Assembly: GCA_963747235.1 (NCBI GenBank)
Contig: CAVVEU010000003.1
Span: 1-64,000, forward strand
DNA: 64,000 nucleotides
Direction: 5' to 3'
Origin: an uncultured Candidatus Rokubacteria bacterium
GTDB lineage: Bacteria > Methylomirabilota > Methylomirabilia > Rokubacteriales > CSP1-6
Part shown: positions 1,573-20,854 of the stretch, piece by piece
Position numbering within the stretch: the first letter of the stretch is position 1
Layout: every line of letters begins with the position of its first letter
Position numbers and translations under genes: made by a program
The notes under the pieces: generated by a model
The model's input: the letters and a program-made list of their open reading frames with translations, nothing else
Told to the model about the DNA's origin: nothing
The model's database searches: none

Positions 1573-3906
1573 TCATGGCTGTTTCTGGCGCCCGCCCGCC
1601 GGCAAAGGCGTGAAGAACCGAAACGAGAAGATCTTGGCGTTCTGGAGCTGGAATCGCACGCGCACCACCTGTCCCGCGAGCGACCCGAGGTCGGAGTCGG
1701 CTCCCCACGTGACCACTCGCGAGATCTCATCCCCCGTCATCGAACTCGCATCGGCGATCGTGAATCCCGGGAGGGGCCGGCCGGAGCCGTCCTGAAGCTC
1801 CACGCGGACATGTCCGCCCGGGCCGGTTGCGAAGTTCATCTCCAGCGCCTTGCCGGTGAACGTAACGGGTCTGGTGATCGCCTGCCCGGCGGCCGCGCGG
1901 AGCGCGACAAAACCGTCCGTCCTGAGCGTGTAGCGTACGACGCGGCCGGGCTGCTCGAGATAGACGGACATCTCCTGGGGCCCCGTCGGGACCACGTTCG
2001 GGCTCATACGGCCGGCAAACACCGGCCAGTTGCTCTGCTCCGGAAAGAAGAATCGGGCGTTGGGGAGGCCCGTGGTGATCCAACGTTGAGTCGGAAAGAG
2101 ACGGTCGTAGGTGAGGCCGCCGCGGGTGGAGGCAAACCGCGTTTCGGAGCGAGCGCTATGGCCGTCGTCAGGTTGATTCCGAAAATCGGGATGGGGGACC
2201 GGGATGTAGTGGGAGGGCATCGCAATGGCGATATGCGGCGCTCGAAAGTACGGCGAGGTCGAGTGGAGGTACCAATGCTCGAAGGGGGGACCGCCGGTCT
2301 CCATGTCCACGGGCGGCGACCAGGTGAGCAGGTCGTGAGAAGTCGTCTTCCGGACCCAGCGATACCATCCTCCATAGCTGTCATCGGGACTCGGAGTGCT
2401 CGGTGCCTTCACCCACCCACGGAAGTAGCAGACGTAGATCTGCTCACTCTCGGACCAGAAAGCGGTGTTCATGCCATCGTAGTCGACGGGAGGAAGATTG
2501 GATTGGCCGTCGCGACTCTTGAAGCGCTGGGGAGGAAGAAAAGGCCCGGGGGAATACCTGCTCCACCGGAGGCCATCCGGCGAGACCAGGATGTGGAGGC
2601 CGTCCGTCCACATCGCGCCGTCAGCGCTCCTGTAGATGACGCCGCCGGTCACCGCCTTGTACTTCTGAGAGGGCGGAGCCCCTGGTCGTGTGTCGATGAA
2701 CGGCCGGAGGTTGTGGAAGGACGGGTCCGGCATCAACAGGACATTGTTGTCCCACGTCCCCTTGACCTTGACCTGCCGGAGGTTGGGGCGGGTCCAGGTA
2801 ATCCCGTCCCGGCTTTCCGCGTAGCACGGCATCCCTTCCTCGGCTTCAGGATTCCACCGCGTGGGATCGCAGTAGTAGTACATGCGGTAGATGTCGCCGT
2901 CCTTGATGACGGTCGGCCCCTGCCCGCTCCAGGAGCCCTCCCAGGGTCGGTCCATGAAGTTGAGGGACATCTCCGCCACCTTCGGCGTCTGGAGCTCCAA
3001 CGTCGCCTGCGAGGTGGAGGCGAGAAGTGAGCCGTCCACAAACAGCTCCCGTCGGGATCCGAGGGCCATAGGCGTGAGGTTGGCGCCCTCACTCCCGGTG
3101 ACGACTCTTACGTTGTCCACGCGATAGTCGAGCTCGTTCGAATGCATCGCGAGGACTACTTGATCGAAGGCATACGTGACCGGGTTGGCATCTGCGCGAG
3201 TCACGTCGACGAGGACAGCGCCTGAGGGGTTGCTCACCTTCATCCGCAAAGTCAACTCACGGAGGCCCGTCCGAGTGATCGTGAGGATCCCGGTGTACCT
3301 GGCGGAGCTGTTGATTGTTGCGGAGCTCTCCGCTCCCAGCTGCGCGATGTCTCCTCCTTCCATGAGCCGGGAGGTGCCGTCGCCGCTCTCCTTGAGCAGG
3401 CCGGTGTTTCCGGCGACAGGCCCGTAGCCGGTCTGCGCCCAGTACCCTTTGTCGTCGCGTGTCGCCCCGCTGCCGTCGCTGGTGCTCGGCGTCCCGGACG
3501 TGGTGTAGAGGCCGAAGCGGAAGCGGTTCTCGCTGCTCGCGCTCAAGGGGTTCGCGAACCGGAAATCGAGCGACAGGGTGAGGGTGTCGCCGACCGTCCC
3601 GAGGGTTTGCGGTGATCCAACGAACTGACCGATGACCGCCCGGGTCACGAACGTGCCGGCCGGGACCGAGGGATTGTCGGCGATCAGCGCGTTGGTCACC
3701 AGCGCACCGTCCGGACCCACCGAAAGAGCGGTCGGTGTCCCGGACGAGACCTCGTTGGAGAACCACTGTAGCGCCCGAGGGTCTCGCCCGGCGGTTCTCC
3801 GGCCGTCCTTGAAGGTCTCCTCCACGACTATCGTGGAGGAGAGGGCGGACGTGGCAAGTGCGGCTGCGATGAGGACTAGCCCGATGGCAATTGCTTTGCG
3901 TTGCAT
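1573..3906 (-). CDS. Secreted two-domain protein: N-terminal beta-rich domain plus five-bladed beta-propeller glycoside-hydrolase-like domain
   Basis: Signal peptide MQRKAIAIGLVLIAAALA; RRELFVD, YAESRDGITWTRP, SPDGLRW, RYTLRTDGF and C-terminal VRVRFQLQNAKIFSFRF; TAGAAT 8 nt before ATG 3906. Confidence 0.7.
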   Translation of the reverse strand: MQRKAIAIGLVLIAAALATSALSSTIVVEETFKDGRRTAGRDPRALQWFSNEVSSGTPTALSVGPDGALVTNALIADNPSVPAGTFVTRAVIGQFVGSPQTLGTVGDTLTLSLDFRFANPLSASSENRFRFGLYTTSGTPSTSDGSGATRDDKGYWAQTGYGPVAGNTGLLKESGDGTSRLMEGGDIAQLGAESSATINSSARYTGILTITRTGLRELTLRMKVSNPSGAVLVDVTRADANPVTYAFDQVVLAMHSNELDYRVDNVRVVTGSEGANLTPMALGSRRELFVDGSLLASTSQATLELQTPKVAEMSLNFMDRPWEGSWSGQGPTVIKDGDIYRMYYYCDPTRWNPEAEEGMPCYAESRDGITWTRPNLRQVKVKGTWDNNVLLMPDPSFHNLRPFIDTRPGAPPSQKYKAVTGGVIYRSADGAMWTDGLHILVSPDGLRWSRYSPGPFLPPQRFKSRDGQSNLPPVDYDGMNTAFWSESEQIYVCYFRGWVKAPSTPSPDDSYGGWYRWVRKTTSHDLLTWSPPVDMETGGPPFEHWYLHSTSPYFRAPHIAIAMPSHYIPVPHPDFRNQPDDGHSARSETRFASTRGGLTYDRLFPTQRWITTGLPNARFFFPEQSNWPVFAGRMSPNVVPTGPQEMSVYLEQPGRVVRYTLRTDGFVALRAAAGQAITRPVTFTGKALEMNFATGPGGHVRVELQDGSGRPLPGFTIADASSMTGDEISRVVTWGADSDLGSLAGQVVRVRFQLQNAKIFSFRFFTPLPAGGRQKQP

Positions 3907-4053
3907 CGTTGCCCATTCTATCGGCTTCAGGAAGGCTATGGACCGGCAAGCGGGCTTCGGGGGGCTGGTCCGCGGCCAAAGCTCCGCTATGGGCGGCAAC
4001 CTTGGTCGGCCAGATGCTTCGACCGGGCGTGAGCCCGGCGGGTTAGCCGGATG

Positions 4054-4209
4054 CTAGGGCCGTTCGGGCCGAGTGGGACGGGTGCGACGCCCCAGCAATC
4101 CGATCCCTGTCAGAGCCGTACCAATCAGCAGAAGCGAGGCCGGTTCGGGCCCAACAAAACCACCCAGCACCCCCAAGCTCAGGAGCGCCAGAATCAAGAT
4201 CAGTCTCAT
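4054..4209 (-). CDS. 51-aa minimal PEP-CTERM peptide (not in the ORF track)
   Basis: MRLILILALLSLGVLGGFVG-PEP-ASLLLIGTALTGIGLLG-RRTRPTRPERP*; AAAGG upstream; divergent from the exosortase gene. Confidence 0.75.
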   Translation of the reverse strand: MRLILILALLSLGVLGGFVGPEPASLLLIGTALTGIGLLGRRTRPTRPERP

Positions 4210-11003: not shown

Positions 11004-11746
11004 TCACCGCCGGGCCGAGATCCTCGGCGACGGCTGGCCCACGTGGATGTGGGCCCCCGACGTGGAGCCCGGAATGGCCCCCCACGCCGCGATGAACGGG
11101 ATCCCCTGGCTCCGTAGATGCTCCATGAGCGCTCGCCCCTCGGGGCTGTCCGGGTGGACGGCCAGGTCGAGCGCGTTGCGATGGTCGAAGCCCATGCGGT
11201 CGTGCAGGGCGGTCTGCCCGAAGGCGCTGATGGGTAGCGCCCGCCCGAAGCGCGCCAGGAAGAACTGCTGCAGCCGAGGTGTGTCCACGGCCAGCGGACC
11301 ACGCGCGAGCCCGTTGAACCGGGCCAGGCCCGGCGTCTCCTCGTAGCCGCCGCGCGGCCAGCGGGGTGAGGCGCGCCAGGGCCTCCGCCATCCGCGCCTC
11401 GGTCAGCATCCGATCCGTCGTCGGCGATCGCCGCCCGGGTCTCGTCCACGTTCTTCTGGGCCTCGGTCTGGGCCCGCTGGCCGTCCTCGAACTCGCGCTT
11501 CGAGATGACCTCCCGCTCGAACAGGTCCTGGCGCAGCTCGGCCAGCTCGGCGCGCCGGGCCAGGTCCCGCTCGTAGATGGCCAGGACCCGCTCCAGGGCG
11601 GCCCGGTAGTTCAAGGTGGCCGCGATCACGTCGGACGCGGTTTTCTCCAGCCTGTTGGGAGCTTGGGCCCAGGCGATCGGGGCGGACAGGCGGGCTGCAA
11701 CAGCGCCAGAAGGCAGATCAGAGCTGATATATAAGGCTTTTGTCAT
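11004..11746 (-). CDS. Exported coiled-coil protein with a C-terminal putative zinc-peptidase-like domain (several frameshifts)
   Basis: Pieces join across frames: signal peptide, helical region, then ALHDRMGFDHRNALD...GAHIHVG. Confidence 0.6.
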
Positions 11747-11865
11747 TTCTAGGGTGACCAGTGTACCAGCCTGGGGACAGTTTTCGTCAACCGGCCGGCA
11801 GTTTCGGGGATGAACGGCTGGCGTCATGCCGCCTATCTACTTGATTTGCCAGCGCTCAATGGACA

Positions 11866-11881
11866 TGGCCTTCTCCTTGCT
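11866..11881 (+). promoter_or_regulatory. sigma54 promoter
   Basis: TGGCCTTCTCCTTGCT (GG-N10-GC); IHF-like AATCAAGTAGATA on the minus strand at 11834-11846. Confidence 0.6.
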
Positions 11882-11898
11882 CATGATCTGATCGAGAT

Positions 11899-12135
11899 AT
11901 GAAGCCCATGCCAGAACCGGAACAGCACCAGCCGAATGGCCAGGCCAACAAGCGATGGCTGATCGTCGTCGCGCGGGGCCAGGCGGATCTCTACGCGCAT
12001 CTCGTGCAAGCCTTCTCGCGCGACGGCAAGGTGCGCGTGATCCTCGATCGTCGCAAGGACGATTCGCGCAACTCGCCCGAGGTGACCCACCGTCTGCGGA
12101 CTCACGGCGCCGTGATCATCCGGCAGGCACCGTAG
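11899..12135 (+). CDS. Small protein of unknown family (DRR domain); paralog of 20368-20766
   Basis: WLIVVARGQADLYAHLVQAFSRDGKVRVILDRR. Confidence 0.75.
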   Translation: MKPMPEPEQHQPNGQANKRWLIVVARGQADLYAHLVQAFSRDGKVRVILDRRKDDSRNSPEVTHRLRTHGAVIIRQAP

Positions 12136-12160
12136 AAGAACTTACCGGCTTCCCGTCCCG

Positions 12161-12814
12161 ATGGGTACGATGGGGACCAGGAAGATGCCCGAGGCGAACG
12201 GCAGGGACCGGCGACGTTTCCAGCGCATCCGAACGGCGTGGCCCGTCATCCTGGAGTCTGCCGACGGCCGGGTGGGCGTCGGCCAGGTGGTGGACACGAG
12301 CCTCTCCGGTATGCGCATCGCCACCGATCTCGATCTCGAGCCCGAGACGCCCCTCGTCTTGCGTATCACGCTGCCCAAGGACACCGGCCGGCTCGAGATC
12401 CTCGTGAAGGTGGCCCGCCGCGACCCGCATGGCTTCGGCGTGTCCTTCCTCACCGTGGGCGAGGGAGAAGCCGAGCGCATTGCGCCCTTCGTGGCGCCCG
12501 GCGACATCCGGCGCTGGGCTCGCCGCGTGACGGTGAGCCTGCCCGTGCGAATCGAGGCCGGCACCGTGGAGGGCGAGATCATCCACGGCCGCACCGTGGA
12601 CCTGAGCACCTCGGGCGCGCGCCTCACCACGGACGGCAGCCTGGCCGTGAGCGACGTCGTCGTGGTCGAGCTGCCCGGCCCCGAGATCGGCGGAACCCTT
12701 CGCCTGCCCGCGCTGGTCTGGGAGGCCTACTCCGGAGGCGCGGTGGTGGTCTTCGCCAACCTGGCCCGGGGCGAGTACTTGAAGCTGCGCGACTTCCTGA
12801 ACCACTTCGGCTAG
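12161..12814 (+). CDS. Tandem PilZ-domain protein (start possibly 12185)
   Basis: RRRFQR...DTSLSG and RRWARR...DLSTSG give two RxxxR / DxSxxG pairs. Confidence 0.85.
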   Translation: MGTMGTRKMPEANGRDRRRFQRIRTAWPVILESADGRVGVGQVVDTSLSGMRIATDLDLEPETPLVLRITLPKDTGRLEILVKVARRDPHGFGVSFLTVGEGEAERIAPFVAPGDIRRWARRVTVSLPVRIEAGTVEGEIIHGRTVDLSTSGARLTTDGSLAVSDVVVVELPGPEIGGTLRLPALVWEAYSGGAVVVFANLARGEYLKLRDFLNHFG

Positions 12815-12852
12815 CACGGTGGTTGCCTAGTCGGAGGGAAATCTGGGTGACG

Positions 12853-12873
12853 GTCAGGGGGTGCCCCCCTGAC
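12853..12873 (+). terminator. Hairpin after the PilZ gene (terminator or operator)
   Basis: GTCAGGGGG-TGC-CCCCCTGAC followed by AATTCTT. Confidence 0.4.
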
Positions 12874-12938
12874 AATTCTTGCACTCCCCGCCTCGCTGGA
12901 TACCTTCAAGTAGCCTGATTTTACTGGATAACGAATGG

Positions 12939-12954
12939 TGGCACATGCGTTGCT
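12939..12954 (+). promoter_or_regulatory. sigma54 promoter
   Basis: TGGCACATGCGTTGCT, a near-perfect TGGCAC-N5-TTGC. Confidence 0.8.
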
Positions 12955-13098
12955 CACTTCTGTGCGATGCTCAAATCTGCCCCGTACCGCGTATTGCGAG
13001 CGGGCAGAACGGTCGTCACGGCTTTGCGGTGGAGGGCCCCCCGGCGGGACGCTAGAATGGGTCGCCCTGAGGAACTTCCGATACGAGGAGAGGGAGCG

Positions 13099-13554
13099 AT
13101 GGACAATTCGGCCGAGAAGAACCCGCTGACCAGGTGGGTTGACGAGATGCAGGGCGTGATGAAGATGATCACGGGCCTCATCGAGGACAGCGACCGCAAC
13201 CGCGTGGTGGTCGAATCCGCCCAGCGCGAGCAGGCCGAGCTGCGCGAGGAGATCCACCGCTTGCGGGCCGAGGTCGAGACCCAGCGCATGGAGGTGGACC
13301 GGCAGCGGGGCGAGACCGAGCGCCAGCGCTCGCTCGTGGACGCCGCCCAGCGCGAGCGCGACGATCTCCGAACCGAGCTCGCGGCCCTCAACGCCGAGAC
13401 CGAGCGTCTCCGCAGCGAGCAGACCGAGGCCGGCGAGAGCGCGGCCAAGCTCCTCGGGGAGATGAAGGACCTCGTGAACCAGGTGGCGCACAAGTTCCAG
13501 GGGCCGTCCAAGAGCAGCCCCTTCGCTCGCGAGCCGCGGTCGCCCCAGTCCTGA
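13099..13554 (+). CDS. Coiled-coil protein of unknown function; paralog of 20082-20363
   Basis: GGAGAGGGAG RBS; heptads AEVETQR/MEVDRQR/GETERQR. Confidence 0.8.
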   Translation: MDNSAEKNPLTRWVDEMQGVMKMITGLIEDSDRNRVVVESAQREQAELREEIHRLRAEVETQRMEVDRQRGETERQRSLVDAAQRERDDLRTELAALNAETERLRSEQTEAGESAAKLLGEMKDLVNQVAHKFQGPSKSSPFAREPRSPQS

Positions 13555-13562
13555 GCCTGTCC

Positions 13563-14835
13563 ATGACTCCCAACGCCGATGCGCTGAAGGCCGCGCCCCC
13601 GCGAGCCGGAACCGCGATCGGCGAGGTTCGCGCCGCGCTCGACGAGCTCGTCGCGAGCCATCACCAGACCGTGCAGATCGAGCGCCTCCGCGCCTTCCGG
13701 GAGATGGCGGGCGAGGTCGCGCACGACTTCAACAACACGCTCTCCGGCATCCTCGCCCGCGCCCAGCTCCTCCTGGCCGACGTGCAGGATCCCGACGTGC
13801 GCCGCTCCCTCCGCATGATCGAGCAGGTCGCCCTGGAAGGCGCCTGGGTGGTCCGCCGCTTCCAGGACTTCAGCCGCACGCGCCCGTCCCGTCCCTTCCA
13901 GCCCGTGGATCTCAACCAGCTCGTGGAGGAGATCGCCAACTCCGCCCGCTCGCGCTGGAGCCAGCAGCTTGCCGCGCGCGGCATCACGGGAGAGGTACAC
14001 GCCGAGGCGGGCCCGGTGCCGCTCGTGTCGGGCGACATGGCCGAGCTGCGCCAGGTGCTGACCAGCATCGCGCTGAATGCCCTGGACGCGATGCCCGAGG
14101 GCGGCAACCTGACCTTCCGGACGGGCCGCGAGCGCGGCCGCGTCTTCTGCCAGGTGGCCGATACCGGCATCGGCATGACCGAGCAGGTGCGCCTGCACAT
14201 CTTCGATCCCTTCTTCACCACCAAGCGCGAGAAGGGCAAGGGCTTCGGGTTGAGCGGCGCCTACTCCATCGTGGACCGTCACGGCGGCGAGATCACCGTG
14301 CAGAGCGAGCCCGGCAAGGGCGCGGTCTTCACCGTGTGGCTGCCCCTCGTGGCCGCGGCCGCCGAGCCGCTCCCGGCATCGGGCCGGTCCAACGGGCCCG
14401 CCGCAGTGGCCAGCGCCGCCGCCCCGGTCGCGCCGCCCGCGCCGAAATCCGTTCCGGGCGCCAAGATCCTGGTGGTGGACGACTCCGAGGAGGTCCGTGA
14501 AGTCCTGCGGGAGCTCCTCAGCCGGCACGGGTACACCGTGGTCACGTGCCCCGGACGGCGAGTCGGGCCTCGTGGAGCTGGAGAGCCGCACGTTCGACCT
14601 GGCGATGGTGGACCTGGGCCTGCCCGGCATCTCCGGCCTCGAGGTCGCCAATCGCCTGAAGGCCCGCTGGCCCTCGACGCAGGTCGCGCTCATGACCGGC
14701 TACGGAGATCGCATGGGGCCCGAGGATGCGCACGCCAAGGGCGTCGACTTCGTCCTGGCCAAGCCCTTCTCCCTCGACCAGCTCCGCTCCGTCGTGGATC
14801 ACGCCCTCGCCAACGGCAAGAACGCGACCGTCTAG
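13563..14835 (+). CDS. Hybrid histidine kinase/receiver with no sensor domain (frameshift near 14550)
   Basis: AGEVAHDFNNTL, DTGIGM, FDPFFTTK, GKGFGLS; receiver ILVVDD...MVDLGLP...MTGY...KPF. Confidence 0.88.
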
Positions 14836-20081: not shown

Positions 20082-20363
20082 ATGGCGTCCACGACCGAGC
20101 TCCTGACCTGGGTCCGAGAAGGCGAGCGTCTCTTCGGTGCGGTGGTCGGCGTGCTCCAGCAGCATGACCCGCTCCAGGCCCGGGTGATCACGCTCGAGCG
20201 GGAGAACCAGGCCCTCCGAGAGGAGCTTCAGGCGGCGCGGGCGGAGCTGGAAGTCCTCCGGTCCGAGCGGATCGAGGCGGCGGAGACGATGAAGGCCATC
20301 GCCGAGCACGTCACCCGGCTCGCCACGGTGGCGCTGCAGCGCCTGAGCAAGCGCGTCGGCTGA
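20082..20363 (+). CDS. Short coiled-coil protein; paralog of 13099-13554
   Basis: LLTWVRE...LERENQALREELQAARAELE; 18/54 ungapped identities to 13099-13554 by hand. Confidence 0.78.
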   Translation: MASTTELLTWVREGERLFGAVVGVLQQHDPLQARVITLERENQALREELQAARAELEVLRSERIEAAETMKAIAEHVTRLATVALQRLSKRVG

Positions 20364-20367
20364 TCCG

Positions 20368-20766
20368 CTATTCGCCCTGCCACGACGCCGCGCGGCTGAA
20401 GCGCACCGTCGTGTAGCCGAGCGCGTGAGCGGTCCCGCGGGGCTGGCGCCGATCGGTGCGACGCCGATCGTGCGTGGCCCGCCGGTGCGTGGAGCGCCGA
20501 TCCCCGGCTCGCCGCTCCATGATGATCTTCACGCCGCGCACGCCCAGAAAGGCCCGCTCCAGGTGGTCGTAGAGGCCCGTCTCGCCCGGCCGGATGACGA
20601 AGAGGTACGTGACATTCGGAAAGGTCTGCGACGGGAGGGCGGCCAGGATGTTCTGGAGATGGCGACGGCAGACCCCGTGAGTCTCGCTCTCATCGTCGAA
20701 CGGCTCCCGCTCGCCGAGGAACGCAGGTCCCCCTTCCCGCTGACACCAGGCGCAGAAGGCTTTCAA
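20368..20766 (-). CDS. Putative Zn-binding domain fused to the DRR domain
   Basis: CAWC...THGVCRRH, then YLFVIRPGETGLYDHLERAF...MERRAGDRR...DRRRTDRR; TATGAT 10 nt before TTG 20766. Confidence 0.72.
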   Translation of the reverse strand: MKAFCAWCQREGGPAFLGEREPFDDESETHGVCRRHLQNILAALPSQTFPNVTYLFVIRPGETGLYDHLERAFLGVRGVKIIMERRAGDRRSTHRRATHDRRRTDRRQPRGTAHALGYTTVRFSRAASWQGE

Positions 20767-20854
20767 GGTTCCGCCGATCATAGCACGATCGCGGAGGGTC
20801 CCGACCGCGTTGCCTCCTCCGGGAACCCGGGTGTAGAGTCGAAAGCCGGAGGTA

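Follow-up and report, generated by a model that had tools for sequence, protein, structure and literature searches.

A candidate two-unit sigma54 signalling cassette built on two uncatalogued protein families in soil Rokubacteriales

We analysed a cassette of four co-oriented genes on the plus strand (about 11.8-14.9 kb) of a 64,000-nt stretch of DNA from an uncultured Candidatus Rokubacteria bacterium (GenBank assembly GCA_963747235.1, contig CAVVEU010000003.1). The whole stretch is referred to as the window; the genome to which it belongs measures 5.57 Mb. The genes encode a small protein of a family that we call DRR (DRR1), a protein with tandem PilZ domains, a coiled-coil (CC) protein (CC1) and a hybrid histidine kinase (HK) with a receiver (REC) domain, and they form two candidate sigma54 units (Table 1). 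An initial annotation, made from the letters alone, had described four co-oriented genes under two sigma54 promoters, an intact double PilZ protein, a gap of 8 bp between CC1 and a sensor-less kinase with a short stretch before its H-box, and a recurrence of the two unassigned families at 20082-20766. These descriptions were borne out: the open reading frames (ORFs) occupy 11899-14835, and the recurrence consists of a CC1 paralog (CC2) and a zinc-ribbon-DRR protein (DRR2). It had overlooked a +1 frameshift in the kinase at ~14549-14552.

Table 1. Features of the cassette and of the paralogous CC2-DRR2 pair (window coordinates)
Feature	Position	Strand	Remarks
Conserved block GACAGTTTTCGTCA	11776..11789	+	~90 bp 5' of P1; AC..TT..GTCA columns invariant in 6/6 aligned orthologous loci
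Candidate sigma54 promoter P1 TGGCCTTCTCCTTGCT	11866..11881	+	-24 GG / -12 GC; 2 mismatches to consensus
DRR1	11899..12135	+	78 aa, short DRR subtype
Tandem PilZ protein	12161..12814	+	217 aa, starts 25 bp after DRR1
GC hairpin CAGGGGG-TGC-CCCCCTG	12855..12871	+	After the PilZ stop; kept in aligned loci with changed stem letters
Invariant block TGACAATTCTTGCAC	12870..12884	+	~70 bp 5' of P2; conserved in 7 aligned loci
Sigma54 promoter P2 TGGCACATGCGTTGCT	12939..12954	+	Perfect TGGCAC-N5-TTGCT; sole 0-mismatch site in the window
CC1 leader	12955..13098	+	~145 nt; hairpin CTGCCC..GGGCAG; conserved blocks GGCTTTGCGATGGAGGGC and GCTAGAATGG
CC1	13099..13554	+	151-aa coiled-coil protein
Hybrid histidine kinase, first frame	13563..14552	+	~50-aa N-terminal helix, H-box His54, HATPase_c, linker, start of REC
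C-run with one extra base	14549..14552	+	+1 frameshift splitting REC
Remainder of kinase REC, +1 frame	14545..14835	+	PF00072, 55.2 bits, profile positions 27-110
CC2	20082..20363	+	93-aa CC1 paralog; phmmer and hidden Markov model (HMM) matches, N-terminal W motif in common
Zinc-ribbon-DRR2 protein	20368..20781	-	CxxC..HGxCxxH, then full DRR with Arg-rich loop; convergent with CC2

The order DRR1-PilZ-CC1-HK.REC was found at six loci: in the window, in three genomes of the same genus (G007, G003 and G002), at L046 and in G203, which belongs to another genus. A seventh locus (G001) meets a contig end within PilZ. As the loci sampled are best hits together with many close kin, these counts overstate independence, and all fractions given here are descriptive. 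Between G203 and G002 the kinases are 70% and the CC1 proteins 53% identical. CC1 was followed by a hybrid kinase at all 12 CC1-type loci, which come from three genera. The idea that CC1 and the kinase are one gene split by an error, which the initial annotation had named as a way to refute it, was rejected, as in 11 loci a stop codon and a change of frame separate the two. The gap between them, 8 bp in the window, ranges from 8 to ~45 nt in ten relatives' loci, and CC1 and the kinase are probably translationally coupled. The ORF of CC1 opens at 12967, but conservation places the start codon at the ATG of 13099, preceded by GGAGAGGGAG. In G203 a further pair of receiver genes and another DRR gene follow the cassette (L048, G203:C31, 7666-10517), and the module may be larger there.

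Both promoters are conserved beyond the species. Exact sigma54 consensus sites number 22 in the genome against 2.9 expected from base composition; P2 is among them, and of 12 orthologous loci in three genera, 11 retain it in the form TGGCAY-N5-TTGC between diverged flanks. Sites with two mismatches, such as P1, are no more frequent in the window than expected (17 versus 17.9), so that P1 alone does not stand above chance. All six loci compared, from three genera, nevertheless have its TGGCC-N6-TTGCT unchanged apart from a variable spacer, and the DRR1 start codon lies ~17 nt past its -12 element. The conserved blocks upstream of P2 (TGACAATTCTTGCAC) and P1 (GACAGTTTTCGTCA) are alike, and each is a possible site for an enhancer-binding protein; the former is also kept in loci of genus g21 that have no PilZ gene upstream. 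The genome contains rpoN (one Sigma54_DBD match) and 27 Sigma54_activat matches, corresponding to ~20 enhancer-binding-protein genes, none of which is on the window's contig. The two sigma54 units are thus possibly co-regulated.

PilZ and CC1 are separated by 284 bp. The hairpin at the start of this interval is a possible terminator of the DRR1-PilZ unit; it was not picked up by our terminator scan, which demands a T run. No riboswitch was recognized in the CC1 leader, for which there was no Rfam match at E <= 1 and a consensus fold with little covariation. The only Rfam match in 11700-13700 was gyrA RNA at 13599-13676 (25.3 bits against a gathering threshold of 45, E 0.0019); it lies inside the kinase coding region and is probably due to chance. 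Elsewhere in the genome, contig C39 carries seven of the 22 exact sites (TGGCAC-N5-TTGCW), all on the plus strand within 54 kb (4713-58369), which may represent a large sigma54 regulon cluster. A further sigma54-like site, TGGCACCGAGTTTGCC, is identical in L001 (6070-6085) and in L067-L072; a small zinc-ribbon ORF opens with TTG ~14 nt behind it, and the gene for a DRR.CC fusion follows that ORF. Both P1 and TGGCACCGAGTTTGCC would be expected to give near-leaderless transcripts.

The tandem PilZ protein scored 82.9 bits against PF07238 (cut-off 22.5) in two stretches. PilZ domains bind cyclic di-GMP (c-di-GMP) through the motifs RxxxR and (D/N)xSxxG. Both are intact in each domain of this protein, with RRxxxR at 17 and 117, DTSLSG at 45 and DLSTSG at 147, and it is accordingly a predicted c-di-GMP receptor. 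Its orthologues occur in the cassette only; a second group of tandem-PilZ paralogs is present in every genome of the genus.

The kinase has HATPase_c (85.8 bits) and REC (55.2 bits) domains above the Pfam cut-offs and a HisKA match of 22.5 bits (E 1.2e-4) that falls under the cut-off of 26.9. Its H-box, EVAHDFNN, is invariant in 10 orthologues, and the histidine is residue 54 here. It is preceded by a conserved helix of ~30 aa, GEVRA.LDELVA.H.QTVQQERLRAFREMAGEVAHDFNN. A Pfam scan revealed no PAS, GAF or other input domain. When the intact L038 orthologue was compared with NCBIfam, the nearest models were CckA/EspC/VirA-like (E 2e-48 to 5e-45), all with scores far below their cut-offs.

In the window the kinase is broken: the first frame continues as nonsense to 15782, and the rest of REC is read in the +1 frame. 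At all 10 orthologous loci a single frame runs through the kinase core and REC. Contigs from four public soil metagenome runs (X1-X4) were aligned to the stretch; those of X1, X3 and X4, from three studies, are each one base short at 14547-14553, and X2 gives no coverage there, so that every near-identical contig covering the break has no extra base. Setting the break aside, the kinase keeps 79-83% identity along its full length with three orthologues of the same genus. Because neither the 10 orthologous loci nor the contigs of three studies have the extra base, the frameshift is most likely an error of assembly and, failing that, no more than a lesion private to the strain. Other frame changes were observed nearby and elsewhere. 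A divergent gene on the minus strand (11007-11788), whose product combines a signal peptide with a coiled coil and, at its C-terminus, a domain bearing an H..D..HIH motif, has two of them within 60 bp (~11358 and ~11419) and is a single 290-aa ORF in G007; they are further indel errors or lesions beside the cassette. Elsewhere in the same genome, genes for an AMP-binding enzyme (L003, 2949-4097 / 3844-4086) and an AddA/UvrD-like helicase-nuclease (L005, 8132-11327) are split between overlapping frames, which suggests many single-base indels in the assembly.

Next, we characterized the two families that the initial annotation had left unassigned. CC1 has 343 homologous clusters, and 113 of the best 120 have a length of 151 +/- 7n (144, 151, 158, 165 or 172 aa). 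Lengths in steps of 7 imply that the coiled-coil rod changes by whole heptads. The protein consists of an N-terminal R-W-x-x-E helix, the heptad-variable rod and a C-terminal EAGE..LVNQVAHKFQGPSK.SPFARE segment. CC1, CC2 and two further paralogs in the genome share an N-terminal helix with an invariant Trp, the coiled-coil rod and a conserved C-terminal helix, and the CC part of one paralog was modelled as a single helix of ~110 residues (predicted local distance difference test, pLDDT, 96-98). Profile searches of 251 genomes of the phylum detected the family in 156, including 126 of 158 in the window's own family; the tally includes the unpublished G232 and G116. Against Pfam and NCBIfam, CC1 gave generic coiled-coil noise only.

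Several known identities for the CC proteins were rejected. A kinship with Hpt or DHp domains does not hold, as the histidine of VAHKFQG is replaced by glutamine in three of the 12 CC1-type orthologues (L050, L051 and L052) and also in CC2 and C13. No PspA/IM30 match (PF04012, E <= 0.01) was obtained for CC1, CC2 or 16 other CC proteins. Only one of 16 CC proteins, of subtype 'b', passed the threshold of DUF7491 (PF24319; 31.8 versus 30 bits), and CC1 and CC2 gave no match. The likeness of CC1 QVAHKFQG (13480-13520) to the kinase H-box EVAHDFNN (13715-13740) may be a chance one. Subtype 'b' (RERLIRWMDES ... SPFART) adjoins a Pfam-less ORF of ~580-630 aa at L054, L055, L056, L059 and L063, and this is a different conserved CC pairing.

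DRR proteins follow the consensus RWL.VVAR....LY..L...F.....V.VILDRR, then mostly a (D/E)RR-rich loop, then G(F/Y).hV. When a profile was run against 1.84 billion representatives, 3923 clusters passed E <= 1e-3 and 1240 passed E <= 1e-10; among the 150 top matches, stand-alone proteins 75-125 aa long predominate. No Pfam family fell on the DRR part in any of 36 checked. DRR1 itself matched nothing in Pfam or NCBIfam. Its homologues form 271 clusters, of which the top 120 share 78-100% identity with it and are all labelled 'hypothetical', without Pfam domains; the nearest atlas cluster of zinc-ribbon-DRR2, with 1569 members, likewise has no Pfam domain. In the phylum-wide search (which for DRR includes the unpublished G232, G116 and G233) DRR was found in 196 of 251 genomes, with 150 of 158 in the window's family, 21 of 21 in family f4 and 0 of 20 in f13, and the matches per genome reach 21 or more. 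Hits in the phylum number roughly 1570 for DRR and 360 for CC. DRR is a large, lineage-expanded family without a Pfam or NCBIfam model.

DRR is also joined to other domains. We found REC-DRR fusions (P0353, and L021 in G035), a DRR-REC fusion (P0311), zinc ribbon-DRR fusions (DRR2 and others), a NusG-N-like region joined to DRR (P0327), tandem DRR repeats, and an AAA_16-TPR protein of ~1000-1200 aa with DRR at its end that is retained throughout the genus (its open frames measure 545-1241 aa). The AlphaFold 2 (AF2) model of DRR1 has a beta-alpha-beta-alpha-beta order (pLDDT 86). Foldseek against the PDB gave nothing at E <= 0.001 (E >= 0.32), and the wide VIA-align search listed only thioredoxin-like, KaiB and SasA-N entries, weakly (best Z 4.7). 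Kinship with REC as a half receiver was rejected (hhalign probability 1.2%).

The two families were then examined for their association with each other. The genome has six DRR domains and four CC genes, and a DRR lies within 1.2 kb of three of the four CC genes, each time in a different arrangement; one is the CC2-DRR2 pair at 20082-20781. Among 52 CC genes examined, 13 share one open frame with DRR and a further 12 have a DRR within the adjacency radius of 1.5 kb. The single-frame DRR.CC genes are distributed over genus g1 (seven loci), family f7 (four) and family f4 (two); one is found at contig C13 of this genome and in 6 of 6 same-genus relatives examined. DRR.CC fusions are also represented by 138 protein clusters called as single proteins by JGI, NCBI or ENA, the best 120 of which are 177-249 aa long and mostly cover the query whole. 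The initial annotation had argued that the two families are functional partners. Adjacency at three loci of one genome and fusion in three families agree with this, and indicate that DRR and CC are genuine families and true partners. In the linker of DRR.CC genes (L001 6600-6650, L067 and L069), a Shine-Dalgarno-like AAGGAG and an in-frame ATG precede CC in all three genomes, and internal initiation could yield a CC-only product.

A second association of CC genes is with receivers. For 50 CC genes whose downstream flank spans at least 700 bp, we looked on the same strand for a kinase core or REC domain in the first 700 bp behind the gene; 24 have one. In this genome, where ~119 REC hits are spread over 5.57 Mb, three of the four CC genes, of three subtypes, are followed by a kinase or REC. 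The DRR.CC fusion gene is followed by a terminator-like hairpin, a second sigma54-like site (TGGCAC-N5-TTGCA in three relatives, TGGCAC-N5-ATGCA in this genome) and a single-domain receiver, and the stop of a gene for an SCO4226-like.CC protein overlaps (ATGA) the start of a single-domain receiver. The single-domain receivers at these two paralogous CC loci have no N-terminal extension and no kinase core, which indicates that the element common to the receiver-type neighbours of CC is REC and not DHp.

From these observations we propose that the locus is a lineage-specific sigma54 signalling cassette of soil Rokubacteriales (Methylomirabilota) in which a receiver is read out through CC and DRR with a c-di-GMP input from PilZ; we assign this reading a probability of about 0.5. 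Unit 1 would supply the DRR-domain protein and the tandem PilZ receptor, and unit 2 the CC protein followed by the cytoplasmic, sensor-less HisKA-HATPase-REC hybrid kinase. The CC rod would dock on a receiver, which would be the kinase's own REC here and a single-domain receiver at paralogous loci, and would carry or recruit DRR as the effector end, so that the phosphorylation state of REC would be read out via CC and DRR. The tandem PilZ protein would add a c-di-GMP input at DRR1, and an enhancer-binding protein encoded elsewhere would turn on both units together. We infer the physical contacts, the direction of signal flow and the role of DRR; gene anatomy, motif integrity, promoter conservation, synteny, fusions and the kinase frame that is intact elsewhere were observed. 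A bolder version, which we regard as speculative and would not bet on, holds that DRR and CC constitute a new, lineage-expanded accessory layer of two-component signalling. CC would be a heptad-metered rod on phosphorylated REC, DRR would be a new output domain whose loop binds nucleic acid or a nucleotide messenger, c-di-GMP would gate the output of this cassette via PilZ, and the single-domain receivers and hybrid kinases of Rokubacteriales would signal by DRR.CC and not by classical DNA-binding regulators.

A number of results weigh against the proposed cassette, and the relatedness of the sampled loci mentioned above is one of them. At five loci of genus g21 the CC1-kinase pair occurs without DRR or PilZ, which makes unit 1 dispensable. 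None of DRR, CC, HK or REC lies within 1.5 kb of 24 paralogous tandem-PilZ loci (the second group and distant relatives). Thus the initial annotation's link between PilZ and the kinase stands on conserved order in one orthologous group and finds no echo among the paralogs. Its suggestion to examine the co-occurrence of the families also had a divided outcome: CC is fused with DRR in 13 of 52 cases and near it in a further 12, and has a kinase or REC behind it in 24 of 50, whereas among 26 non-orthologous DRR loci in relatives none has CC within 1.5 kb and three have REC beside DRR, which against an expectation of ~7% is not an enrichment. CC therefore appears to rely on DRR far more than DRR relies on CC. 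Behind the remaining 26 of the 50 CC genes neither a REC nor a kinase is encoded, and subtypes 'b' and 'c' adjoin unrelated genes. DRR1 does not have the long Arg-rich loop typical of its family. In the AF2 model of the DRR.CC fusion, DRR is not packed on CC, and the linker and Arg loop are disordered (predicted template-modelling score, pTM, 0.33), which leaves the model uninformative on a contact between the two. The window locus contains no Hpt protein or terminal response regulator. A complex prediction for the L038 kinase and CC1 scored 0.00 in two runs without controls and weighs neither way. No claim on expression is drawn from public RNA runs, in which 6-14% of sampled words were present.

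Three other explanations deserve consideration. The initial annotation had suggested that CC1 supplies the missing input of the kinase, its helix pairing in trans with the N-terminal helix or DHp and thereby setting autophosphorylation; PilZ and DRR1 would in turn act on CC1. Such a role would fit the strict succession of CC1 and kinase at 12 of 12 loci, the gap of 8 bp, the conserved helix of ~30 aa before the H-box and the heptad-step lengths of CC1 (113 of 120), which keep both ends in register. Two CC subtypes nevertheless precede single-domain receivers, with no kinase core and no N-terminal helix, so that a DHp-directed role cannot be the common function of the CC family. We consider this explanation unlikely: fusion and synteny support the idea of a module but not the trans-input mechanism, and the neighbours of CC point to REC. 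Somewhat less credit is due to the view that DRR1-PilZ, as a c-di-GMP effector pair, and CC1-kinase are unrelated units that are neighbours by descent only. It would account for the occurrence of the full four-gene order only in a g1 sub-clade, one g5 genome and L046, for the g21 loci that keep CC1-kinase alone, for the other neighbours of PilZ paralogs and most DRR genes, and for the hairpin and separate promoter between the units. It is harder to reconcile with the fusion of DRR and CC in three families and their adjacency at three loci of this genome, with the order kept in G203 at 53-70% protein identity, and with two promoters both of the sigma54 type behind similar conserved blocks.

The kinase could also be a true pseudogene in a cassette that is decaying in this genome, as the +1 frameshift in REC, the two frame changes within 60 bp of the divergent upstream gene and the other split genes might suggest. 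Three frame breaks in 3.5 kb and the splitting of housekeeping-type genes (the AMP-binding enzyme and the AddA-like helicase) fit an error-prone assembly better. The break coincides with a homopolymer, the extra base is missing from every contig of three other studies that spans it, and the kinase otherwise keeps 79-83% identity to its same-genus orthologues. Decay is thus the least credible of these explanations, and we regard it as very unlikely.

If the contacts of the proposed cassette are true, DRR and CC would be a new kind of adaptor/output pair for two-component and c-di-GMP signalling. For most single-domain receivers and sensor-less hybrid kinases, both of which are common, no partner is known, and the locus offers a concrete, testable candidate, in which fusions, gene order and common control by sigma54 tie two uncatalogued domains to receivers. 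A definition of DRR and CC would also improve the annotation of a major uncultured soil phylum. A literature search by words returned no description of DRR, CC or the cassette, a weak result, as an unnamed domain cannot be found by words.

How does the cassette compare with known systems? The PilZ protein HapZ binds the REC domain of SagS. The review PMC12564702 describes HapZ as acting with SagS to regulate two-component signalling in Pseudomonas aeruginosa, and its reference list includes a paper on the c-di-GMP switch of CckA. Among described systems the cassette comes closest to HapZ-SagS, as each associates a hybrid HK-REC kinase with a c-di-GMP receptor of the stand-alone PilZ kind. It differs in that its PilZ protein is tandem and encoded with a DRR protein in a separate sigma54 unit, and in that DRR and CC stand between PilZ and the kinase; unlike SagS, which has a periplasmic sensor, the cassette kinase has no sensor. 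It shares an AHDFNN-type H-box with c-di-GMP-sensing kinases of the CckA type, but has no PAS domains or membrane anchor and corresponds to no named kinase as an equivalog. Sda, KipI and FixT are examples of small accessory regulators of histidine kinases. Like these, CC is small, soluble, encoded beside a kinase and presumed to act by binding; unlike them, to which it has no sequence relation, it forms a heptad-stepped rod of ~110 residues, occurs beside single-domain receivers as well and is also fused to DRR. In P0353 and L021, DRR is C-terminal to REC in the manner of REC-X output domains, from which it differs in having no Pfam or NCBIfam model, in being mostly stand-alone (75-125 aa), in standing also N-terminal to REC and in its disordered (D/E)RR-rich loop. 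We conclude that the cassette is a genuine, conserved variant, specific to its lineage, of two-component and c-di-GMP signalling, with two new domain families at its base.

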